Positions 2,169 through 46,848 of a stretch of 64,000 nt of DNA are shown piece after piece. The position numbers were made by a program, and so were the translations under genes. Where the stretch lies: sequence record NZ_CP014126.2; one strand, 5' to 3'. The DNA is from a plasmid. Each line of letters starts with the position of its first letter. The stretch's first letter is position 1. Below the pieces are notes generated by a model that was given only the letters and a program-made list of their open reading frames with translations, was not told the DNA's origin and did no database searches.

Positions 2169-2570
2169 CTGCAAGATTGCTGCAATCTTGCAGTAATCAT
2201 TTGAATCTTTCCTGATCTTCCTTCTGTACTATCATTCAGCATCTAAGTTTGCTGCTATCTATCTGCAAGATAGCAGCAAACTTGCTTAGGCTGGTTTGCC
2301 CAATTTTCGACTCATGATGTGTTGCATCTTTCTGCAATCTTGCAGCTATCTTAATTGTGAGCTTCATAATGTTCACACTAAAAGATTGCTGCAAGAATGC
2401 AGCAATCATGCTGATGGTTTTCATCCCTTGTTACCTACGATTTTATGCAAAATACTTGCAGCAAGCTTGCTGCTATCTTTCAGGCTTTCATCATCTACTA
2501 AACAGCTATCCACTCCAGTATTTACAGGATGACTGCAATCTTACAGCAATCTTGCAGCAATCTTGCTATA
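2166..2570. repeat. Centromere-like iteron array: at least 6 palindromic units TGCAGCAA-N3-4-TTGCTGCA between parG and parM
   Basis: Examples: ctgcaagattgctgcaatcttgcag, ttgctgctatctatctgcaagatagcagcaaacttgc, gattgctgcaagaatgcagcaatcatgctg, acttgcagcaagcttgctgctatc, gactgcaatcttacagcaatcttgcagcaatcttgct. The ORFs called inside this region (2236-2424 -, 2296-2532 +, 2357-2602 +) are low-complexity artefacts. Confidence 0.55.
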
Positions 2571-2699
2571 AGTTTGCCGTAGCTACTATGAGTTTTAAGT
2601 GAGATAAATATGAGATATTTTAGTTGCTGATATGTTTCTTTTACCAGTGATCGTGTATATTTGTCTCATATAGTTCTCAAATAAAGGGTGTTAAGAGAT

Positions 2700-3656
2700 A
2701 TGAAAATGTTCATCGATGATGGTTCTACAAACGTTAAACTCGCCTGGCATGACAAGGATTGTGTGAAGACACATTTGAGCCCTAATAGCTTCAAGCGTGA
2801 ATGGTCAGTAGCCTTTGGTGACAAACCTGTGTTCAATTACACCATGAACGGCGAGCAGTACTCTTATGATCCGATTGCACCTGAAGCAGTGAAAACAACG
2901 AATATTGCGTGGCAGTACAGTGACGTGAACGTAGTTGCTGTGCACCATGCGCTTCTGCAGACTGGCCTCAAACCCTGCGAAGTGGACATTACGGTCACAC
3001 TGCCACTGACTGAGTTTTATGATCACAATAACCAGCCAGCTGCAGCGAGCATCGAAAAGAAAAAAGCGAGTCTGCTGCGTCCGGTTTCACTGAACGGTGG
3101 TGAAAGCTTTAAAATCCGCAGTGTCTCGGTAATGCCCGAATCTATTCCTGCCGGATTTGAACTACTGAGCGAGCTGGACCTGCTCGATTCACTTCTCATT
3201 GTTGATTTGGGGGGGACGACGCTCGATATTTCACAGGTACGCGGTCGCATGAGTGGTATTACACGTATTCATGGCGATGCAACGATCGGGGTATCTCTGG
3301 TCACAACTGCAGTAGCTGACGCGCTTCGTGTTGCAGGAACGCGGGGTAGCAGCTATCTTGCCGATGATATTATTGTCCATCGCAATGATGATGCTTACCT
3401 TGAGCGCCGTATAAACGATCTCTCCCGCGTGAGTCTGGTCAAAAACACCATTACTGAATCACTCGAACGTCTGACTCAGCGTGTTCTAAGCGCCATGGCG
3501 GCGTTTGAAGGTTATACCCATGTAATGGTTATTGGCGGTGGTGCTGAAATTATTGCCGAAGCCGTTCGTACGCACTGTGGTGTGAGGGCAGAGCGCTTTT
3601 ATAAAACCGACTCATCCCAGTTTGATTTGGTCAGAGGGATGATTGCTATCGGATAA
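2700..3656 (+). CDS. parM: ParM/StbA actin-like plasmid segregation ATPase
   Basis: [18 protein letters not shown]...[32 protein letters not shown]...[19 protein letters not shown] is the R1 ParM/StbA N-terminal signature. The first ATG is at 2700; the track starts at an upstream GTG at 2688. Confidence 0.85.
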
Positions 3657-8615: not shown

Positions 8616-8625
8616 CATATGACAA

Positions 8626-8680
8626 GGTGATGGCGTTCCACCTTTCCCAACCGCTCCGTTCCGGAGCTGATGACGCCTGA
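8626..8680 (+). ncRNA. fluoride riboswitch (crcB RNA motif) aptamer
   Basis: GGUGAUGGCGUUCCACC-uuuCCCAACC-GCUCCguuccGGAGC-UGAUGACGCCU matches the conserved GGnGAUGGnGUUCnnCC...AAC...stem...UGAUGAC(U/G)CCU layout. The loop GGCGU can pseudoknot with ACGCC. It sits 85 nt upstream of ppaC. Confidence 0.8.
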
Positions 8681-8764
8681 TGCGACTCTTGATTTTCAGG
8701 AGGTGCGTCAGGCCGTCCTTACTTTCTTCCCGGCCTGCGTACTTCCCTCTTCGGGGAGAGACCT

Positions 8765-37347: not shown

Positions 37348-37380
37348 AAATAACCCCGGCATGCCGGGGTTATTTTTTGT
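37347..37380. terminator. bidirectional rho-independent terminator (aaccccggc-atg-ccggggtt followed by a T-run)
   Basis: GC hairpin flanked by A-run and T-run between convergent genes. Confidence 0.75.
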
Positions 37381-37903
37381 CAGGCATTACGTCCGCAGCT
37401 AAGAAATTTTCAGGCGCGGGCGTTTTTTTATTCTGCTTCGCCATTGCGGTGTAAACCTCATCCCGTGCAATGAGCACGCGGTAAATACTCTTGATGATTG
37501 CAGCATATTCACGACGCTGTTTGATCAGCTTCGGACTCGGGCCGGTGTTGTACATCCCGACGCTGTCCCAGTTTCTGCCATACTGTCTGAAATTTCGCGC
37601 CTCGATCCACGCACCGGTATAAATGCAGATGCACGGATCTTTCAGCAGCCTTTCCCGCGTAATATCAAACTTTTTCAGCTGATTAAAGTGAGAGCTGTTT
37701 ATCTGCATATTGCAGACATCATGCGTGCCGCCGCTGCTTTTCGTATTCAGCGCATTATTACGCATGCGTGATTCCTGAATGGAATGCGCCATCAGGAGAC
37801 GCGGATCAATACCGAAATCCTGCCCGGCTTTTGTGAAACACATTTCCGGCGCAGCCTGCGCGCTGAATACAGCGGCAAGCGCGAGAGCAGCAAATATTTT
37901 CAT
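37370..37903 (-). CDS. lytic transglycosylase, SLT domain (F orf169 / R1 P19-like)
   Basis: Signal peptide MKIFAALALAAVFSAQA. Catalytic-Glu region LLMAHSIQESRMRNNA. 177 aa. Confidence 0.75.
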   Translation of the reverse strand: MKIFAALALAAVFSAQAAPEMCFTKAGQDFGIDPRLLMAHSIQESRMRNNALNTKSSGGTHDVCNMQINSSHFNQLKKFDITRERLLKDPCICIYTGAWIEARNFRQYGRNWDSVGMYNTGPSPKLIKQRREYAAIIKSIYRVLIARDEVYTAMAKQNKKTPAPENFLAADVMPDKK

Positions 37904-37989: not shown

Positions 37990-38740
37990 CGTTACAGACG
38001 CGCACGTTGCGCTGACCGGCTGGTGACGAACCTTGTCAGGGATATAAAGAATTCAGCAGGATAGCTTTATTTATCAAGCCGCTCTCCGGGTGTAAGATTT
38101 CATCACACCCCACGCAAGATTTCATCTTGCAGTTTTTTTATTTTAAAACATAGAGTTATCCTGTTTTTAATGGAGTTTTTTGTTTATATAAAATTAAAAG
38201 TGTGCTAATTAACACACTTTACAGTGCCGTATTGTGTGTCATGATGGTGCCTTATTGTGTGTTGTTATGGTGCTGGATTGTGTGTTGTGACAGTGCCGCC
38301 TTGTGTGGTAATTAGGCACTGCAAAAGGCACTGTAGGGTGTGCTAATTATCGCTAGTCATTAAAATCAATAACCTAGATATATGCTACGCCATGCTAGTG
38401 CCTGATTAACACACATCAAAACAGCCCACAGTGCCGGATTGGCACACCTAAAATAGAGTAGTAATGCCTGCTCACCACATCTTAGTTACTCAGGTTTTAT
38501 CATTTCTTATGGCCTGGAAAGCTATATAGTGCTGAATTAACACACATTTTTGATGCGTCGCCTGCTATATCAGATCTCATGAAAAAATAATTACCTAGTG
38601 CTGGATTGACACACACTCATTCAAAGAGAAATAATTAAAACAGCTGAGCTACACCTTCTACATATTTCTCCAGAAAAGATGCTCTGGTTTCTTATTCGCT
38701 TAAATTTTTCAGAATGCGATCTTATTTTCGCCGCTACGGA
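37990..38740. promoter_or_regulatory. oriT: oriT region: F-type nic sequence plus arrays of putative relaxosome-protein binding sites
   Basis: The minus strand reads TTGCGTGGGGTGTGATGA at 38101-38118 (compare F nic GCGTGGGGTGT|GGTG). A-tract bend at 38133-38150. Palindrome GTGTGCTAATTAACACAC at 38200-38217. Four tandem 23-bp repeats (gtgccNNattgtgtgt...) at 38223-38312. Further AGTGCYNGATTRACACAC copies at ~38388, 38425, 38529 and 38597. traM lies immediately downstream. Confidence 0.7.
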
Positions 38741-38751
38741 GTGACAGCAAA

Positions 38752-39138
38752 ATGGCCCGAAGGAATATTTATTTTAAAGAGAAAACTGAAAGGGAAGTCC
38801 TTGAGCTTGTACAGATTGAGCTTCAGAACGGAGCCACACACGGCGAGATAAACTTTTCCTCTGTTGTGAATGAGCTCGTCGGTATTGGTTTGATGGTAAA
38901 AAAACATCAGGGTGAAGGTAGCAAGTTTGATGCTGAGGGATTCAATCGAGATCTGATACGCAAAGTTTCGGGAACCCGTGAAGGAACCAGCATTATGATT
39001 GCAATGCTTACAGAAATGTACCTGCATGTCAGAGGAGAGAACAATGCACACGCTCTGGAGGAGCTGATTGACCGTAACCTGACGGGGATAAGTGCGGCAG
39101 AGGATAGGGCTGAAAATAAGCATTTTATCCAGGAATAA
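38752..39138 (+). CDS. traM: TraM relaxosome accessory protein
   Basis: 127-aa protein. N-terminal RHH-like segment (RRNIYFKEKTEREVLELVQIE) and C-terminal tetramerisation-like helix. It is positioned right after oriT, as in F. Confidence 0.7.
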   Translation: MARRNIYFKEKTEREVLELVQIELQNGATHGEINFSSVVNELVGIGLMVKKHQGEGSKFDAEGFNRDLIRKVSGTREGTSIMIAMLTEMYLHVRGENNAHALEELIDRNLTGISAAEDRAENKHFIQE

Positions 39139-39142
39139 CGAA

Positions 39143-39172
39143 GCCGGGCGTTTGCCCGGCAATTTTTAATTT
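39143..39172. terminator. bidirectional terminator gccgggcg-tt-tgcccggc plus T-run
   Basis: Hairpin between convergent traM and the histidine kinase gene. Confidence 0.65.
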
Positions 39173-40431
39173 ACGCGCGAAACAGGGATTCTCAGCGTGA
39201 ACGTAGTACCCTTTCCGATTTCAGAGTGTGCCTTTATTGAACCGCTCATGGTTTTTATATAACTGTTCACAATAGTAAGTCCGAGTCCAAGACCTTGCCT
39301 GGTTTCTGATTCAGCACCTTGATTAAAAGGCTTGTAGAGGAACTTTAACTTACGCATGTCAAAGCCACATCCATTATCACTTACTCTTATCATTAAAATT
39401 CTATCGGTCAGTCTGAGTCTTACATCTATTAATCCATTACTGGTGTTTTTATTGGAATTATCTATCAGGTTGTGAATAATCGATATGAGCTTTTGCTTAT
39501 CAGTTCGAATCAGTGTTTCAGGCAGGTTTACATGAAACTCTAATGTGTTTGTTGTTTCATTGAAGAGTGACATGCTTGATTCGATTATTTCATTGAGCCT
39601 GAAAGTTGTCACATTTAAACCAACGTTTCCGATTTCAATCTTCGAGAACTCAAGGATCTCTTTTGTTTGCTGGAAGAGTTTATTTGAGTGTAATGAGATT
39701 TTTGCAAGATATTTCTGAGTTGCGAGCATGCCCTCTTGGGGATCTATCATATCGCATGCGAGTTGAATTTTTTGGATTGAACCAGACATTTCGTGATAAA
39801 TTGCCGAGATAAAGATATTCTTACCTTTTATGGCTGCTTTAAGTTTGGAGATGTGCATCCATAATACGATCATTAGAAGAAAAAGAAGGAATATACTTGC
39901 GAGCGCAGTTGTTTCTGCACTCATTGAGTTATCGCTTATTATCTTTTTAACTCTCTCAAAGTTTTTAATCTGAATACGATAGATGATTTGTTGGAGGTCA
40001 ATCAAAGCCGGTTGCATTTCATCCATTTTACTTAGCAGCATTGCTTTTGTTGATGAAGGGTTTTCCGGATTATAGAGTGCGCCTAAATCAGCGCTTTGTT
40101 TTTCAATATTACTTAGAGCTGATATGAAATCTGGCTCGTAATAAAACGTGCCGCTATAATTATATTTATTGCGAAGGATTAGTAGTTTTGAGTCAAAGAC
40201 GGATTTACTGATCAGGAAAGCATTCGGATTTTCAGTTTTATAAACTGCAGTTCTGGTACGTTCGAAAGCAAGAAATAATATTTCTGCAGTAGAATAGTTA
40301 TCAAGAGTAGGAGCTATACTTCTGTACTGATTTTTTACTTCATTGAACTTCATAACAGTTAGATAGACGGAACCTCCAAAAAGCAGAGTCAGTACCAGGC
40401 CAAAAAATACCGCTGTTTTTTTACCTTTCAT
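39166..40431 (-). CDS. sensor histidine kinase with a ~160-aa periplasmic domain
   Basis: TM1 VFFGLVLTLLFGGSVYLTV; TM2 ALASIFLLFLLMIVLWM. H-box ISAIYHEMSGSIQKI; N-box IHNLIDNSNKNT; G1 DNGCGFD; G2 GLGLGLTI. AT-rich. Confidence 0.8.
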   Translation of the reverse strand: MKGKKTAVFFGLVLTLLFGGSVYLTVMKFNEVKNQYRSIAPTLDNYSTAEILFLAFERTRTAVYKTENPNAFLISKSVFDSKLLILRNKYNYSGTFYYEPDFISALSNIEKQSADLGALYNPENPSSTKAMLLSKMDEMQPALIDLQQIIYRIQIKNFERVKKIISDNSMSAETTALASIFLLFLLMIVLWMHISKLKAAIKGKNIFISAIYHEMSGSIQKIQLACDMIDPQEGMLATQKYLAKISLHSNKLFQQTKEILEFSKIEIGNVGLNVTTFRLNEIIESSMSLFNETTNTLEFHVNLPETLIRTDKQKLISIIHNLIDNSNKNTSNGLIDVRLRLTDRILMIRVSDNGCGFDMRKLKFLYKPFNQGAESETRQGLGLGLTIVNSYIKTMSGSIKAHSEIGKGTTFTLRIPVSRVN

Positions 40432-40882
40432 CTACCGCCTCAATTCTGTTTATCTGCCAGACAGTGCGAGCATTTACTTCAAGATTATTCAACTCTGGAT
40501 GCTGGTCCCTGGGATAAATGACAGCAAAAGGACCGAGATCTGAGACGGGTATCTGTTTTCCGTTTTTCTTGTAGGCAAGGATGACTCCATACTTGTCCAG
40601 TTCGGCTACGGGGAGGGTATAGCTGTAGTCATCAAGAGCAAAGATTCGCAACTGAGAGGCCTGAACACCGTACGATTTCAGGAGCGTAGTAAAAGTTACA
40701 CCTTCGAATGTTGCTTCAGGGGTGAAATTAGTAGAGGTTTTAATAGTTGATAAAGCCAGATGTGACAGGTCTTCTGTAGTGATCGTTCTAGTCGTTTTAC
40801 CAAAAACTAACTGAAGCGTGTCTGCCAGCACCACAGGTGCTGACGTCATGGAGAGACACAATATACATGCCCTTATTATCAT
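40421..40882 (-). CDS. secreted small protein, possibly with a sulfite-oxidase/YedY-like fold lacking Mo ligands; putative co-sensor
   Basis: Signal peptide; GVTFTTLLKSYG...ALDDYSYTL...GPFAVIYPRDQHPELNNLEVNARTVWQINRIEAV loosely follows the Moco-oxidoreductase domain consensus. Overlaps the kinase gene start. Confidence 0.35.
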   Translation of the reverse strand: MIIRACILCLSMTSAPVVLADTLQLVFGKTTRTITTEDLSHLALSTIKTSTNFTPEATFEGVTFTTLLKSYGVQASQLRIFALDDYSYTLPVAELDKYGVILAYKKNGKQIPVSDLGPFAVIYPRDQHPELNNLEVNARTVWQINRIEAVDER

Positions 40883-41322
40883 TTTTGTTTCCTTTTTCGC
40901 ATGATCAGTTGGCCAAATTCATCGTCACCTTGCGGCACCCAACCTCGGGCTGCATAAAATCCTGCCGCAGAAGACCCTTTATCGGTGGTCAGTTCAATCT
41001 GGTCATCACTTCCGCTAAAGAACCAGTCTGTGATCCTTTCGAGTATCTCACTCCCAATACCTCGCCCGTGATACTCCGGTCTGACAAACAGGCCGCCAAT
41101 GAGGGCATGGGGAATGTGTATACCCAGTCCGTAACCCACAAACTCGTCATTAATACTGCAGATCCATCCACCCCCCTGGCTGATGTCTTCAATTACCTGT
41201 TCTCTCTGCAGATATTGTATCTGGTGAGCATGAACCATGTTTTCCTTTACAGAAAAACGGATGTCGTAAACTTCCTTGATGTGTCTTGGTTCAAGTTTCA
41301 GGAATTCCATTTTTAGTACCAT
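40879..41322 (-). CDS. GNAT-family N-acetyltransferase
   Basis: Acetyl-CoA motif A: FVRPEYHGRGIGSEILERI. 147 aa. Confidence 0.75.
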   Translation of the reverse strand: MVLKMEFLKLEPRHIKEVYDIRFSVKENMVHAHQIQYLQREQVIEDISQGGGWICSINDEFVGYGLGIHIPHALIGGLFVRPEYHGRGIGSEILERITDWFFSGSDDQIELTTDKGSSAAGFYAARGWVPQGDDEFGQLIMRKRKQK

Positions 41323-41325
41323 TAT

Positions 41326-42096
41326 TTAATAGAAAATGTTTGCCAGAAGAATTGAGGATAAAATAAACACCCGCGTCGGTTTCTCGACAAGTTCAACACC
41401 ATACTTGACGATGGTTTCACCGATTTCCTGTTCATGCTGATTTAACTGTCCTGTTAACAAGATAATCGGAACTTTCTCATCTGTACTGCGAATTTTCTTA
41501 ATGACTTCCTCTGAGTTTTGATCATAGTCAAGTAGCCAGTCAATAACATACCCATCATAAGATTCGCTATCAATAGCTTCACTGAGAGAGGCCGCAGTCT
41601 GAAAGGCCTGCCCGTCTATGCCGTACCTATTGGATACAGACTGCATTAACTCCAGGATTTCATTGTCATTATCAAGTATCGCTATTTTTGGGGCAGGCAA
41701 AAGGTCCATTTTCTTTACTTTCTTCATATCTTTGTGAATTTTTGAAGAAGTCGGGTTTATAATATAGAAGTTCTTACTTTTATATGCATAGTTAATACCA
41801 GGTTCTTTAACCTCTACATCTTCATTACTTACTTCAACATTACATCGGATATGAATGTCGTTTACTATAAATAAGCCATTATAGTTACGCCTATCATCTA
41901 ATGATTCATTGAAGAAAGAAAAAATACGTTTTACTTCCTGATAAGTTATGCCACGTTTTTCGTCTAGTTTTTGTTTGGCGCTCTTATATTGAATGTCTAG
42001 TATTTCAGCAATAGTAGATGCCTGCTTTCTTTTTCCTATTCCCTTCCGTTCCAACAGGTTCAGGACTTTTTCAAGATTTAGCTTTGGTCTTTCCAA
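41326..42096 (-). CDS. atypical response regulator: N-terminal HTH, C-terminal receiver domain
   Basis: C-terminal REC pattern (KIAILDNDNE...DGYVIDWLLD...VPIILLTGQ...VEKP). N-terminus has an HTH-like stretch (KRKQASTIAEILDIQYKSAKQKL). It occupies the traJ position, on the opposite strand. Confidence 0.6.
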   Translation of the reverse strand: MERPKLNLEKVLNLLERKGIGKRKQASTIAEILDIQYKSAKQKLDEKRGITYQEVKRIFSFFNESLDDRRNYNGLFIVNDIHIRCNVEVSNEDVEVKEPGINYAYKSKNFYIINPTSSKIHKDMKKVKKMDLLPAPKIAILDNDNEILELMQSVSNRYGIDGQAFQTAASLSEAIDSESYDGYVIDWLLDYDQNSEEVIKKIRSTDEKVPIILLTGQLNQHEQEIGETIVKYGVELVEKPTRVFILSSILLANIFY

Positions 42097-42798
42097 TTGA
42101 ACACCCGGCTGTATTGAATAGATTTAATAGTTTGCGTTTTTGCATTTCAATTTGGGTTAACTCAAAGATGATACACGACTGACGAACTTTTGAAGATAAT
42201 TTTATGCTGTCAACTTATTGATATATATAGAGTTATTGTAAGTCCTCGCAATGGAATCAGAAAAATCCTCAAAAAATACTCAGCAAGGGGTTCACTTAGG
42301 GAGCGGTTATCTAGTAAAGTAGTGTAAGTGCCTTACATACATGTGCTCGCAGCGTAACGCCAAAGCTGTCGTGCTGTGTAAGGTGAGGCTCAATGTCAGT
42401 TTAAAAAAATATGAACTCATGCTACGCCATAGCCTCACTGAATTTATTCTTGAATGGGGTCTAACTGCTACTGATGAGCTCATATATAAAATAATACATA
42501 CATAAACCTATGCCGAAGTGTTCTCCACAAACATCTTTGCATAGCTGCGTTCAATCAGCCCCTCTCCTGTTCAGCATGTCTGGTGAGGGGCAGTTGATCG
42601 TTTTACAGATACTTTCCAGATAGGTTTCCAACACCAGGGTTTTTTCTTCTTCTTTTCATTAACTAAGAGTTTTCTTTTCTCAGGAGGTGTGAGGTATCTA
42701 AAAGCCAAATTTCATTATCAATACTAGTCCCCGTTAATTAATGCATACGCTTTATGCGCGTATGAACTCAGTGTTTTTTTTAAACTGGATATTCACAA

Positions 42799-43221
42799 AT
42801 GAAAATTACCCACTCCGTTACCGGTTTACCGGTGAACGTGGCGGTAGCATTGCCTGATGAGGTTAAGACTCACACAGGCAATGTATTCAGCCGCACCGCC
42901 AACCGTTTCCATTCTGCTTCTTCTCTGTTCTTAACCTCCCTGAAATCCTCCCCCTCATTTCGCCACAGCCTAATGCTGTGCGCGTTGATGCTGGTTGTTG
43001 TGGCTTTTCCACATATTGCTAATGCCACTGACCTGCTGAAGACGCAGCAGCAGGATGCCAGTGACACGTTTGGCCTGCAAAGCTCCGTTATGCGCTGGAT
43101 TTATTTCGCAGAGATCATCATTTCAGTTGTGGGGTTCATTAAGACCCGAAATCCTCTGGTTTTTGTCGGCCTTATTGTGGTCCTGCTCGTAACCCGTGCT
43201 TTCTACGGTATGGTCGGGTGA
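42799..43221 (+). CDS. traA: TraA propilin (F-type pilin)
   Basis: The C-terminal 65 aa (TDLLKTQQQDASDTFGLQSSVMRWIYFAEIIISVVGFIKTRNPLVFVGLIVVLLVTRAFYGMVG) match the F pilin architecture. Long leader peptide. Confidence 0.75.
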   Translation: MKITHSVTGLPVNVAVALPDEVKTHTGNVFSRTANRFHSASSLFLTSLKSSPSFRHSLMLCALMLVVVAFPHIANATDLLKTQQQDASDTFGLQSSVMRWIYFAEIIISVVGFIKTRNPLVFVGLIVVLLVTRAFYGMVG

Positions 43222-43224
43222 TAT

Positions 43225-43530
43225 ATGGAAGACAGGGAATCGCGAAGGTATTACTTCCCGGAAACCCTAAACAACCAAAAGCGTTGGTTTGGTCTGCCAC
43301 CTGAAGAGGCGGTTATTCTCATTGGTTGTGGCGGACTGGGGTTCTGGATTGACATGTTTGTCATCATGCTCATTACCGGCGGTGCGCTCTGGCTTCTTAT
43401 ACGTCACCTTAAGAAGGGGCAGGGGTCCTGGTGGCTTCTGAACCTTCTTTATTGGTATCTGCCCACCACGCTTTTCCGGACGCAGCTGCGGCGTGTTCCG
43501 GATTCCGGCAACCGTCACTGGATGCAGTAG
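43225..43530 (+). CDS. traL: TraL
   Basis: RRYYFPETLNNQKRWFGLPPEE...SWWLLNLLYWYLP...DSGNRHW matches F TraL (YRFPDTLNQPWR...SANREW). Confidence 0.8.
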   Translation: MEDRESRRYYFPETLNNQKRWFGLPPEEAVILIGCGGLGFWIDMFVIMLITGGALWLLIRHLKKGQGSWWLLNLLYWYLPTTLFRTQLRRVPDSGNRHWMQ

Positions 43531-43581
43531 CCCTTCTGCCGCCTTTCGGGGCGGCACATTTCCCTGAAAATGGGAGGACTC

Positions 43582-44190
43582 ATGAAACTTCAGATAAAAG
43601 AAACGCGCCACCGCGTGGTGGTATACACGCTCACGGGACTCGTCGCCCTCGTCTTTCTTCTTGCTGTTGCCTGTGGCATTACCGGTGCAATGGCTTGGTA
43701 TTTTGCTCACACGCAGAAAACCATCACCACTCCGATGACATTCGACAGACCATTTGTCTCCGATGTAACAGCCGGAGACGCAGCGCTGAATAGCATGCTT
43801 GTACGATCACTCGTTAACCTGCGTCTCAACGTCACGCCAGAAACGGTCGATCGCCAGCACGAGCTTCTTCTGAGTTTTGTAACTCCTGAAGCACGCTCTG
43901 AAATGAAAAAGGTGTTGGCTACCGAATCCGCATATGTGAAAAAAAATGGTATTGCCAGTGTGTATAGCATTGAGCAGGAGGCCACTGACCCTAAGACCGG
44001 CGATATCACGGTCGGAGGGACACTTCGAGCCAGTACTACAAACGGCAGCGTCAGCGTTGATCTGCCTGTTGCCAGGCAGGCCTGGCGGCTTCGTCTCCAC
44101 TACGTAAATGGCCTAATCCGACTTGAAGCCTTTCCCGAAGTGTCCTGGTCCGCCTCTTTCAACGCAGATAGCTCTGGAAAATCATTATGA
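43582..44190 (+). CDS. traE: TraE
   Basis: N-terminal transmembrane segment; TPMTFDRPF..LRLNVTPETVD matches F TraE (TPMAFNAPF...LRLNVSSETVD). ATG at 43582 after GGAGGA. Confidence 0.8.
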   Translation: MKLQIKETRHRVVVYTLTGLVALVFLLAVACGITGAMAWYFAHTQKTITTPMTFDRPFVSDVTAGDAALNSMLVRSLVNLRLNVTPETVDRQHELLLSFVTPEARSEMKKVLATESAYVKKNGIASVYSIEQEATDPKTGDITVGGTLRASTTNGSVSVDLPVARQAWRLRLHYVNGLIRLEAFPEVSWSASFNADSSGKSL

Positions 44191-44918
44191 AAGCACAACT
44201 GATTGCCGCGTTCATCGCCGGTGTCATCCTGACTGGTCCGGTCAGCGCTACCGTACCCGGACCGGCTGGTACTGTATTTGAAAATAATGCGCATCTTAAA
44301 GCGATGATGAGTAATACCAGTCCAAATAAAATTGTTATCGATGGTGAATTGATCACTGGTATTACCGGCCCTGATAACGCCTATAAAAAAGCAAATACTG
44401 CCGATGGCGCACTGCTGATAACGCCTCTTACGGGGCAGGATTTCACAATCTTCCTTGAAACTGCCAGCGGCGTAGGCGTCTCAATTGATGTATCACCGAA
44501 ACCGGGAAACGGGCGCACTCTGCACCTTATTCCGGCAGATGCACCGGTGAAACCTAACCCTGACGCTAAATCATGGGAAGAAAGTCAGCCGTTCCAGAAA
44601 ATACTGGTGAGCATTGCTCGCACCGTAGCGAATGGCGAGGTACCTGAAAACTATACCGAGATTAAGGCTTCGCGCGGTCCTGCTTATACCCCCCCCGCTG
44701 GCGTGCAGCTGACACCTGAACGTCAGTTGGCAGGTTCGCATCTGCGGGTGATGCGTTATCGCATAAAAAATACAGGCTATGTGACCCGGATGCTTAGCGA
44801 GAAACAGTTCTGGCAGAAGGACGTGCGTGCAGTAATGCTCTCAACACAAACGCTTTATGCGAACGGTGAAGGCTTTGTATGGGTGATCTTCTCAACTGAT
44901 CCGGAGGGCGGAGCATGA
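44187..44918 (+). CDS. traK: TraK (secretin-like)
   Basis: Signal peptide; position and size (243 aa) fit TraK. Confidence 0.75.
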   Translation: MKAQLIAAFIAGVILTGPVSATVPGPAGTVFENNAHLKAMMSNTSPNKIVIDGELITGITGPDNAYKKANTADGALLITPLTGQDFTIFLETASGVGVSIDVSPKPGNGRTLHLIPADAPVKPNPDAKSWEESQPFQKILVSIARTVANGEVPENYTEIKASRGPAYTPPAGVQLTPERQLAGSHLRVMRYRIKNTGYVTRMLSEKQFWQKDVRAVMLSTQTLYANGEGFVWVIFSTDPEGGA

Positions 44919-46303
44919 GCAATATCAATACCGCAACGCGTCGCCGGCAGTGGGTAATCACCGGTGTGGCCGTCGCGGTTATGCTGGCTGTGGGCGCGGG
45001 TATATGGGGGTATTCAGAGCATCTTGCGGCACTGAAAAATCCTCCTCCGGCTCCAACCGCAGATCTGACAGGAGCAGGACTCGTCAGCAGTAGTTTTACC
45101 GCTGCAGTGTCAGAGTCCGTACTGACGCAGCAGCAGAACAAGACTGCCTCCCTTGAAAAGGACCTATCTACGCTGTCCAATAATGTCAGTTCACAGAACG
45201 AAGCGCTGACGCGCAAACTCGAACAGATAAGCTCGGCACTGGATAAGCTGCAGAGTCAGACGGACAAACCGCCATCGCAGAACGGGCCTGTCACTTCACA
45301 AACCGGACCAGGGACAACCGCTACTGGTCCAGCCTCGCTGGGACAGTCTGGTCCGGCACAATGGCGCGTAACTAACCCCGGTAACGGTCCGGGAGCAGGG
45401 CAGGGGAGTCAATTCTATCCTGCACAGAGTCATAGTTTTTATCCCGGTAACGGTACTGTGCGCCCGGGTGGTCTGAGTCGAGATACTTTTACCTACGCTG
45501 CGCTCGCAGAGAAAAAGACAAAGCTTCCCTGGATTCCATCAGGATCGTTTTCAGAAGCGGTAATGATTGAAGGCGCAGATGCCAATGCCAGTGTTACTGG
45601 CCAGCAAAATACCTCTCCAGTAGTCATTACTTTGTTGGGTGACGTTTCTATGCCCAACGGTAAAACATACAACATGGATCAGTGTCGCGTAACTGGAGAA
45701 ATTTTCGGTGATATTTCCAGCGAACGTGGCGAGGTCCGAACCAAAAACATCAGCTGCATACTGAAAAATGGCAAGCACATCGATATGGCTTTCGACGGTC
45801 ATGTGTCTTATCAGGGCAAGCAGGGTATTCGCGGCAAGCCTGTCATGCGTAATGGTGCAGTACTCGCTAACGCCGGATTTGCAGGGTTGCTATCGGGACT
45901 GGGTGAAGGTGTTCAGGCTGGCTCCACTACTACCGTCGGCATCGGTGCCACAGCTTCGCCAGCTGCAGGTGACATCTTAAGACAGGGACTAGGCGGCGGT
46001 GCCAGCAAAGCAGCAGATACGCTGAGTCAGTACTACATCAAACGCGCCGAGCAGTATCACCCTGTTATTGATATTGGTGCTGGCAACTCCGTGACAGTCG
46101 TATTCCAGCAGGGATTCAGGCTCGAAACCATTGAGGATGCTGAGGCGGAGAAAGCGCTAAAAGACGCGCCACAGGCCACTGTTCAGCAGGCTGCAGCAGT
46201 GGTGCCTGCCAGCGTCAATACAGGTAGTGCACCGGTTCTAAATCCTGATGAAGTACTGCGTCAGGCCAGTCAGTTACGTCTCGGTGATACGATCCCTCAA
46301 TGA
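44915..46303 (+). CDS. traB: TraB (VirB10-like)
   Basis: N-terminal transmembrane segment, Pro/Gln-rich linker and C-terminal beta-domain. 462 aa. Confidence 0.8.
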   Translation: MSNINTATRRRQWVITGVAVAVMLAVGAGIWGYSEHLAALKNPPPAPTADLTGAGLVSSSFTAAVSESVLTQQQNKTASLEKDLSTLSNNVSSQNEALTRKLEQISSALDKLQSQTDKPPSQNGPVTSQTGPGTTATGPASLGQSGPAQWRVTNPGNGPGAGQGSQFYPAQSHSFYPGNGTVRPGGLSRDTFTYAALAEKKTKLPWIPSGSFSEAVMIEGADANASVTGQQNTSPVVITLLGDVSMPNGKTYNMDQCRVTGEIFGDISSERGEVRTKNISCILKNGKHIDMAFDGHVSYQGKQGIRGKPVMRNGAVLANAGFAGLLSGLGEGVQAGSTTTVGIGATASPAAGDILRQGLGGGASKAADTLSQYYIKRAEQYHPVIDIGAGNSVTVVFQQGFRLETIEDAEAEKALKDAPQATVQQAAAVVPASVNTGSAPVLNPDEVLRQASQLRLGDTIPQ

Positions 46304-46314
46304 AGGAGTTTTCA

Positions 46315-46848
46315 ATGAAACAGTGGTATGTGCTGCAAACGCTTTTTGCACAGGAGAAAAGGGCTGAGGCACATCTTATTAATCAGGGAGTTGAATGTTA
46401 CCTACCATTTTTCACCTGTCAGTTACTGGCTGACGGGAAAGTGAAGCCGGTTAAAGCACAACCCCTTTTTCCTGGATATTTGTTTGCAAGGTTTGATCCG
46501 GAAGACATTCACACAACCACTATAAAATCTACACGAGGCGTATCCACGATTGTTCGGTTCGGAAACCGCATTGCTGTTATGTCTGATGAAGAAATGAATC
46601 GCTTAAGGCATGGTGCGGACTCGGCAGCGAAGGCTGACATGCAGTCTCCTGCGCATGGTGACAAAGTGTTGATTGCAGGCGGCGTTTTCGGAAACCTCGA
46701 AGCTATCTGGCATGAGCCTAATGGTGCAAAACGGGCAATATTATTGCTGAATTTTATGGGCCGCCTTATTGAGTTGGATTTGAAAAAGGCCCGATCTGAG
46801 GGAATGCAGATTAAAAGACTGACAGGCAGTAACCAGGCTGCGGCCTGA
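46315..46848 (+). CDS. RfaH/NusG-family paralogue (NGN domain plus KOW-like C-terminus)
   Basis: KQWYVLQTLFAQEKRAEAHLINQGVECYLPF...PLFPGYLFARFDPEDIHTTTIKSTRGVSTIVRFG...GDKVLIAGGVFGNLEAIWHEPNGAKRAILLLNFMG is colinear with E. coli RfaH. ATG at 46315 follows AAGGAG. Confidence 0.75.
   Translation: MKQWYVLQTLFAQEKRAEAHLINQGVECYLPFFTCQLLADGKVKPVKAQPLFPGYLFARFDPEDIHTTTIKSTRGVSTIVRFGNRIAVMSDEEMNRLRHGADSAAKADMQSPAHGDKVLIAGGVFGNLEAIWHEPNGAKRAILLLNFMGRLIELDLKKARSEGMQIKRLTGSNQAAA

Follow-up and report, generated by a model that had tools for sequence, protein, structure and literature searches.

In F-like plasmids the promoter PY is activated by TraJ, itself kept in check by FinP/FinO, in concert with ArcA, a response regulator of the host, and traY is the first gene of the transfer operon (PMC7690428). 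What, then, governs conjugation in a plasmid whose traJ slot, between traM and traA, is filled by a sensor kinase, a secreted protein, an acetyltransferase and an unusual response regulator, all encoded on the opposite strand? The question is raised by the Pantoea F-like plasmid NZ_CP014126.2, of which a stretch of 64,000 nt (the window) was analysed in the present study. We propose, with somewhat more confidence than doubt, that this four-gene module is a signal-transduction operon which gates or otherwise controls the transfer genes in response to an environmental cue.

Results

A two-component system occupies the traJ position

The first-pass annotation of this DNA had placed four minus-strand genes between traM and traA, and all four were found there, with matching domains: a sensor histidine kinase, a secreted homologue of the PruR family, a GNAT acetyltransferase, and a regulator that joins an N-terminal BetR helix-turn-helix (HTH) to a C-terminal receiver (REC) domain (Table 1). 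What sits in the traJ position is, as had been claimed, a genuine two-component system. The four genes are considered to form one operon because they are spaced by 3 nt or overlap by 4 or 11 nt, and this operon terminates at a GC-rich hairpin common to the convergent traM. The GC content of about 35% that had been ascribed to all four genes holds approximately for those of the kinase (36.5%) and the regulator (36.4%) and fails for the pruR-like gene (44.4%) and the GNAT gene (46.4%); the module as a whole has 39.2% and the window 53.4%.

The AT-rich gap of about 700 bp described before traA is correct both in size and in composition, and the statement that it contains no traY-like open reading frame (ORF) held up as well. 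A tblastn search with the TraY proteins of two relatives (L002 and L007; loci are cited by their L numbers) was negative. Among the ORFs of the gap no match to TraY or TraJ was obtained in Pfam, NCBIfam or PHROGs at E-values up to 10, the TraY of a relative giving 1e-10 as a working positive control, so that a sensitive profile search of 42097-42798 found no small traJ- or traY-like gene. The search of the whole window with Rfam at gathering threshold revealed neither FinP nor a traJ leader. The ORFs of the gap are not conserved in our alignment (A1) and have no family matches. The idea that the module stands in place of both traJ and traY must nevertheless be divided: it does sit in the traJ position, but it is no substitute for traY as such, since relatives carry the module and traY together, namely the sister plasmids DAPP-PG734 P2 and that of Pantoea sp. 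AS142 (L002 and L017), and also a Klebsiella F-type plasmid. Across the module-bearing family traY is optional.

The regulator gene lies head-to-head with conjugation operons of three classes

The regulator was compared by tblastn with PLSDB, 18 plasmid loci were inspected, and one genome per species was scanned, with 60 loci being analysed. A homologue of the regulator is carried by 465 PLSDB plasmids, 384 of which are typed conjugative. The comparative search for the module at the tra junction, which the first-pass annotation had recommended, supports its view of the locus: in 14 of the 18 plasmid loci a conjugation or type IV secretion system (T4SS) operon has its first gene divergent to that of the regulator, and these loci span the mating-pair formation (MPF) classes MPF_F, MPF_T and MPF_I. 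In MPF_F plasmids of Pantoea, Erwinia, Enterobacter and Klebsiella the divergent gene is traA or traY; in Serratia symbiotica, Arsenophonus, Escherichia coli, Salmonella, Buttiauxella and Pandoraea it belongs to a VirB-type operon of lytic transglycosylase and VirB2-4 genes; one Klebsiella plasmid has an MPF_I operon at this place, and another the gene of TraY with that of a transglycosylase. Because the regulator is repeatedly divergent from the conjugation operon starts of three unrelated T4SS classes, control of the transfer genes by the module is supported. Furthermore, the genes for GNAT or a short-chain dehydrogenase/reductase (SDR), PruR and the kinase are inverted in L010, L011 and L012 (Arsenophonus, Enterobacter and Pandoraea), and the regulator faces the T4SS genes regardless; the head-to-head arrangement of regulator and T4SS is thus the constant feature. 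A few plasmid loci are without a T4SS beside the module. In the species-level genomes, T4SS genes are immediately upstream of and divergent from the regulator in 18 of the 60 loci.

Other neighbourhoods were also encountered. Two Paraburkholderia loci (L045 2085-8500 and L051 2095-8538) have the regulator and the PruR-kinase pair divergent from a Tad/Flp pilus operon, which contains a Flp-like small ORF, RcpC/CpaB and a secretin. In Trinickia dabaoshanensis (L036 7925-8539) the ORF divergent from the regulator contains PFIN, the domain of plasmid fertility inhibition factors (E=2.6e-17). Many Serratia species (L004, L019-L026) possess a conserved chromosomal regulator with GNAT, pruR and kinase genes beside thiCEFSGH, and in L004 also beside rpoC; three to four ACTCA repeats are found upstream of the regulator in these copies, and no T4SS lies within 9 kb.

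In the Salmonella Typhi plasmid p84390bp (L083 3873-5274) an IS1 insertion removed pruR and the kinase gene, and the regulator still faces the VirB operon. This natural 'orphan regulator' variant could inform on constitutive or abolished transfer.

Regulator and kinase of the module

The BetR HTH of the regulator, at residues 7-65, scores 33.5 bits against a cut-off of 21.6 and covers positions 6-64 of the 148 of the profile, which is matched nearly whole by the homologues in L005, L006 and L012. With 30.9 bits, the Response_reg domain at residues 138-240 lies just above its cut-off of 30.2. Across 37 homologues D142, D186 and K239 do not vary and at least 90% of the sequences keep T215, for which reason the receiver should be phosphorylatable, Asp186 being the predicted phospho-acceptor. 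In an AlphaFold2 model (pLDDT 88) four helices at 4-61 are followed by a beta domain. Comparison of the REC domain with REC structures by Foldseek gave TM-scores of 0.77-0.86, normalised by target length; no full-length structural relative was found in the PDB, where the REC domain alone has matches. The regulator is predicted to be the DNA-binding output of the module.

The kinase contains two hydrophobic segments, at residues 6-29 and 169-201, which enclose a loop of about 139 aa predicted by hydropathy to be periplasmic. The helix for dimerisation and histidine phosphotransfer starts directly after the second transmembrane (TM) segment, and neither a HAMP nor a PAS domain is present. With the H-box YHEMSG, in which His213 is located, HNLIDNS at 320, DNGCGF at 352, FNQG at 369 and GLGLGL at 380, the protein carries the full set of catalytic boxes (H, N, G1, F and G2) for autophosphorylation and phosphotransfer, and is predicted to be active. 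HATPase_c was recognised with 82.5 bits, and HisKA weakly, with 16.6 bits, under its cut-off. The top NCBIfam match of the kinase core is TorS (TIGR02956, E=2.1e-34), a match that covers the core region only and stays far under the equivalog cut-off. The sensor domain had no match in a PDB search, and a large protein search with the N-terminal 194 aa gave a single, uninformative fragment. The loop of the kinases in the clade of the window has the conserved motif EPNLDNYSTAEILFLAFERTRT.

The secreted protein is a PruR-type homologue

The small secreted protein had been described as sulfite-oxidase-like. This is right as to the SUOX fold and the match to Oxidored_molyb, but the protein is by identity a PruR-type pterin-binding homologue. 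In a phmmer search against the PDB it matched 7kom (7.2e-19), 7rkb (3.5e-18), 7kp2 (1.9e-17) and 7kos (5e-17), each over about 110-120 residues, and the chains 7rkb, 7kp2 and 7kos are titled (putative) 'Pterin Binding Protein'. Its residues 1-20 are hydrophobic and signal-peptide-like. PruR is a periplasmic pterin sensor of Agrobacterium tumefaciens that docks on the periplasmic loop of the cyclase/phosphodiesterase DcpA, and its pterin site comprises the stacking residues Y104 and W160, this Trp standing in place of the cysteine of the molybdenum cofactor (Moco), together with the hydrogen-bonding N102 (PMC11194511). The protein of the window has D84-D85-Y86 and W142, Y86 and W142 being the stacking Tyr and Trp, and both D-D-Y and VWQI are kept across 15 module copies. 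The PruR-type identity of the small protein therefore names a candidate signal: a pterin may be what the module senses, although we put this at somewhat less than an even chance.

The partner of PruR is a TorS/BaeS-like kinase with a DcpA-type periplasmic domain in the so-called PruR-DTB pairs, whose outputs were left unassigned where they were described and which are "frequently proximal to response regulator genes" (PMC11194511). Their defining traits are a pruR that directly precedes the gene of a two-TM sensor, a length of 138-150 aa for the periplasmic loop of that sensor, and an invariant WX7E motif in it (PMC11194511). In the window the pruR-like gene is directly upstream of the kinase gene, with an 11-nt overlap, and the loop has about 139 aa, in agreement with this gene order and loop length. 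We consider the pair as PruR-linked and DTB-like, its membership in DTB itself falling short of proof, because WX7E is missing and the pterin-contacting Asn is replaced by Asp, despite the fit of the Tyr and Trp residues, the gene order, the overlap and the loop length.

The gene accompanying this pair varies. GNAT is found with the module in Pantoea, Erwinia, Serratia, Arsenophonus and Enterobacter; a 327-aa protein without family match fills its place in Enterobacteriaceae variants, and an SDR in betaproteobacterial ones (L012 5781-6563; L038 9854-10723; also L044, L048 and L072), SDR genes being present too in the modules of Variovorax and Xenophilus. For the SDR of the Pandoraea and Trinickia variants FolM is the second-best structural match and pteridine reductase the second-best NCBIfam match, which therefore points the family towards pterin chemistry, and the SDR in L012 and L038 is a possible equivalent of PruA. 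The GNAT of the window matches PDB 8heh_A ('GNAT family N-acetyltransferase') with E=2.8e-52 and 180 bits. A literature search on 8heh turned up no paper, and the structure is apparently unpublished; it may represent a solved protein from a Serratia-type module.

Candidate control elements between the regulator gene and traA

No sigma-70-like promoter or terminator was detected on either strand of the gap by a consensus scan, and the lack of a consensus promoter is as expected of factor-dependent promoters. The conserved block closest to the regulator gene (Table 1) may represent the promoter or operator of the regulator operon. Farther into the gap is a set of phased direct repeats whose composite pattern has one match in the 64-kb window, against 0.005 expected. 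The same motif occurs once each in L002, L003, L008, L009 and L017, at a distance of 169-177 bp from where the regulator gene begins and always facing the same way, and in looser versions, with orientation unchanged, in L004, L010, L011, L018, L019 and L022. We infer that the traA-side promoter could be controlled from this repeat site at 42267-42295. A further block, CAACACCAGGGTTTTTT (42629-42645), is common to the gap of the window and that of L008.

A loose form of the repeat pattern also matched at 2604-2664 and was rejected as a chance match to different repeats upstream of a ParM-like ORF, the stricter composite being unique. The repeats there are short and ATGAGNT-like (about 2590-2680), and the ORF within 2560-3656, which we take to be ParM/StbA-like, probably marks a partition locus of the parMRC type.

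An ops-like element within traA

The tra operon encodes a paralogue of RfaH (NF006534, 150 bits against a cut-off of 124), and an ops-like element lies in the traA ORF; the first-pass annotation had overlooked both. Measured against the ops criterion GGCGGTAGnnTG, the element of the window, GGCGGTAGCATT, has one mismatch to the pattern GGCGGTAGNNTG and matches 10 of the 12 ops positions. In the window as in L002, L003 and L008, traA contains the core GGCGGTAG at nt +42 and the flanks are almost the same, while the neighbouring codons diverge; all four of these plasmids encode an RfaH paralogue after traB. The Enterobacter locus L011 has neither the ops-like core in traA nor the RfaH paralogue; a canonical GGCGGTAGCGTG occurs instead on the minus strand, downstream of traB, at L011 position 712. 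The conservation of core and flanks amid diverging codons, together with the presence of the RfaH paralogue, suggests an RfaH-loading site embedded in the propilin leader.

Organisation of the locus

The genes and elements are ordered as follows: transglycosylase gene, oriT-side gap, traM, the four minus-strand genes, the gap of 702 bp, traA-traL-traE-traK-traB and the rfaH-like gene (Table 1). A near-identical plasmid is pT88c_C of Pantoea agglomerans, of 163 kb and with an F-type (MPF_F) transfer region, which is 99.5% identical over 38700-43300. Its typing as non-mobilizable by MOB-suite was not followed: traG, traD and a MobF relaxase of 1951 aa are annotated there, and because of these the tra region looks intact. 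Elsewhere in the window, a fluoride riboswitch (crcB motif) at 8617-8686 on the plus strand, with 51.3 bits against a gathering score of 34, is the sole Rfam match.

Table 1. Genes and sequence elements around the traM-traA interval of the window
Feature	Position	Strand	Evidence or remark
Lytic transglycosylase gene	37370-37903	minus	
traM, relaxosome protein; left border of the slot	38752-39138	plus	Pfam Tra_M E=2.1e-12; NCBIfam TraM E=2.3e-12; TraM annotation in pT88c_C
GC-rich hairpin GCCGGGC-N4-GCCCGGC between convergent traM and kinase gene	39143-39160	both	Terminator scan; terminator-like
Sensor histidine kinase	39166-40431	minus	HATPase_c E=3.9e-23
Secreted PruR-family (SUOX-fold) homologue	40421-40882	minus	Oxidored_molyb E=8.5e-7 (partial match); phmmer against PDB
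GNAT acetyltransferase	40879-41322	minus	Acetyltransf_1 E=2.3e-13
Regulator: BetR HTH, beta domain, C-terminal receiver	41326-42096	minus	Pfam BetR and Response_reg
Divergent AT-rich control region, regulator operon versus traA	42097-42798		702 bp, 37.9% GC
Conserved block AATTTGGGTTAA ... GATGATACACGA	42149-42178		53-82 bp from regulator start; invariant columns in A1 (Pantoea and Erwinia relatives)
Phased direct repeats CCTCAAAAAAT / ACTCAGCAAGG / (G)GTTCAC, 11-bp spacing, reading towards traA	42267-42295	plus	Candidate operator of the regulator
traA propilin, first gene of the pilus/T4SS operon	42799-43221	plus	TIGR02758 TraA E=9.8e-13; annotation in pT88c_C
ops-like element GTGGCGGTAGCATTGCCTGA in the 5' end of the traA ORF	42838-42857	plus	Core GGCGGTAG at nt +42 of traA
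traA, traL, traE, traK, traB	42799-46303	plus	TraL E=8.4e-19
Plasmid-encoded RfaH paralogue inside the tra operon	46300-46848	plus	NCBIfam RfaH NF006534; rfaH annotation in relatives

Discussion

A proposed route from signal to transfer genes

The mechanism that we propose begins in the periplasm, to which the PruR-like protein would be exported, as its signal peptide suggests, and where it would bind a small pterin, in line with its homology to pterin-bound PruR structures and with the stacking Tyr and Trp that it keeps. By analogy with PruR-DcpA, the protein would dock on the kinase at its loop of about 139 aa, and the kinase, in which the catalytic residues are present, would set the phosphorylation of Asp186 in the regulator. 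The regulator in turn would bind the phased ACTCA repeats and from there control the promoter on the traA side as well as the operon to which it belongs. When transcription has reached traA, the plasmid RfaH paralogue would be loaded at the ops-like site according to the established RfaH/ops mechanism, with the consequent read-through of the long tra operon.

Several points weigh against this proposal, which is strongly suggested by context and is built on sequence and context. About half of the complete modules in the species genomes have no adjacent T4SS, and two lie beside a Tad/Flp pilus operon instead. The sequences in which the repeat pattern was counted are those that had served to derive it; the distance of the motif is fixed to the regulator gene and not to traA, and it is also found in the T4SS-less chromosomal loci of Serratia. 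Autoregulation is for the last two reasons the minimal and safer reading of the motif, which may be mainly autoregulatory. With respect to the pterin, the loop of the kinase has no Trp and no WX7E motif, the latter being absent too from every related kinase examined, hybrid-kinase variants included, and the pterin-contacting Asn has become Asp84 in the PruR-like protein of the window, a change which is known for the PruR groups C and D (2026 review, PMC13259868).

Alternative explanations

The module might instead be an autonomous cargo, regulating itself and acting on its own operon (for example the GNAT) or on host genes, that inserted between traM and traA at a place where insertion is tolerated and that exerts no control over transfer. 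The same module does exist without a T4SS in Serratia, beside thi genes and rpoC, with the repeat motif persisting upstream of the regulator, and its GC content of 39% against 53% for the backbone suggests a separate ancestry. We regard this explanation as unlikely, however, as the regulator is found divergent from and adjacent to the first T4SS gene time and again, across three MPF classes and three classes of Proteobacteria, and keeps this place when the kinase operon is inverted, and as no other recognisable transfer activator is found in the slot of these plasmids. The very same context evidence would be compatible with a negative control, in which the regulator, phosphorylated or not, silences the tra promoter as a gate resembling fertility inhibition and the signal lifts repression, since the sequence does not fix the sign of control; an ORF with a PFIN domain is divergent from the regulator in L036, and folds of the HTH_3/Cro type often belong to repressors. 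Such silencing appears improbable to us in view of a gap without consensus promoter, promoters of this kind usually needing an activator, and of phased direct repeats whose position just upstream of a -35-like TTCAC resembles that of activator sites.

It might also be thought that the gap of 702 bp conceals the true regulator of transfer, a TraJ- or TraY-like protein of divergent sequence or an RNA resembling FinP, the two-component system being accessory. The sole sizeable tra-strand ORF of the gap, of 54 aa at 42341-42505, was read by eye as strand-helix-helix, that is, as a TraY-like ribbon-helix-helix protein, and the leader of about 480 nt from the repeat motif to traA (42320-42800, plus strand) folds somewhat better than shuffled sequences (z = -2.96). 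Both candidates were rejected. AlphaFold2 gives two helices and no strand for the ORF, which has no Shine-Dalgarno sequence, is missing from the gaps of L003, L008 and L011 and has no match in Pfam, NCBIfam or PHROGs, where a true TraY reached 1e-10, and tblastn with TraY was negative; the leader fold was judged unremarkable, and Rfam gave nothing. This explanation is thus very improbable. Regulation by the module is favoured because TraJ, TraY and FinP were not found to do the job otherwise.

Comparison with known systems

By homology the closest system is the PruR-DTB class. As in PruR-DcpA and PruR-DTB, the secreted SUOX-fold protein has lost the cysteine for Moco and retained the Tyr and Trp for stacking (PMC11194511, PMC13259868); as in PruR-DTB, its gene is immediately upstream of and overlaps that of a sensor whose two TM segments enclose about 140 periplasmic residues, the kinase core is TorS/BaeS-like and a response-regulator gene is nearby. 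The module of the window differs in the loop devoid of Trp and WX7E and in the Asp at the place of the pterin-contacting Asn; it is plasmid-borne, adds a GNAT and the BetR-HTH/REC regulator, and stands head-to-head with a conjugation operon, a kind of output that has not been ascribed to DTB (PMC11194511, PMC13259868). With TorS, TorT and TorR, the trimethylamine N-oxide system of E. coli, it shares the kinase core, for which TorS is the top NCBIfam match, and TorS is likewise regulated by a separate periplasmic ligand-binding protein (PMC11194511). The kinase of the window, in contrast, is not hybrid, TorT is unrelated to PruR, and TorR is of the OmpR type.

As far as the slot is concerned the comparison is with TraJ, since both are placed in the space from traM to the start of the tra operon, of which both are presumed master regulators; moreover, a response regulator, ArcA, already cooperates at PY in F (PMC7690428). 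The regulator of the module, however, is unrelated to TraJ in sequence and is encoded on the opposite strand, its input would be phosphorylation by a dedicated plasmid kinase and not an antisense RNA, and neither FinP nor traY was found in the plasmid of the window. By analogy, the closest functional precedent is VirA/VirG with ChvE of the Ti plasmids, where a plasmid-borne kinase and response regulator turn on a T4SS operon upon an external chemical with the help of a periplasmic ligand-binding protein. VirG is of the OmpR type and has its REC at the N-terminus, ChvE binds sugars and is encoded on the chromosome, and the signals are phenolics and sugars; homology with the module of the window is limited to the generic kinase and REC cores. 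The likeness to RfaH/ops resides in the RfaH-family protein of the tra operon and in GGCGGTAG-CATT near its 5' end, with the differences that the element is in the traA coding sequence instead of an untranslated leader and that the factor is plasmid-encoded within its own target operon.

Significance

In full-text searches of the literature the module was not described as a conjugation regulator, absence there being no proof of absence, and the 2026 review on pterin signalling contains no occurrence of "plasmid" or "conjugat" (PMC13259868). As a wider and tentative proposal, for which we see less support than doubt, a PruR-type sensor, a kinase and a BetR-HTH/REC regulator could constitute a widespread master switch that has escaped notice until now and that governs the expression of conjugative T4SS and, in certain bacteria, of Tad pili. 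Plasmids of the MPF_F, MPF_T and MPF_I classes would have taken it up independently in Alpha-, Beta- and Gammaproteobacteria, among them hundreds of sequenced plasmids from Klebsiella, E. coli and Salmonella, and their transfer would respond to extracellular pterins or their redox state. If this were true, conjugation and pilus operons would become the proposed output of PruR-DTB systems that are without one, and in F-like and other plasmids the control by TraJ and FinOP would be replaced by a phosphorelay with a nameable class of ligand. Many of the 465 PLSDB plasmids come from clinical Klebsiella, E. coli and Salmonella, and a chemical cue acting as an on-off switch for transfer could be tested directly and might be exploited. 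As PruR-DcpA controls attachment, pterin signalling may govern surface attachment and DNA transfer alike.

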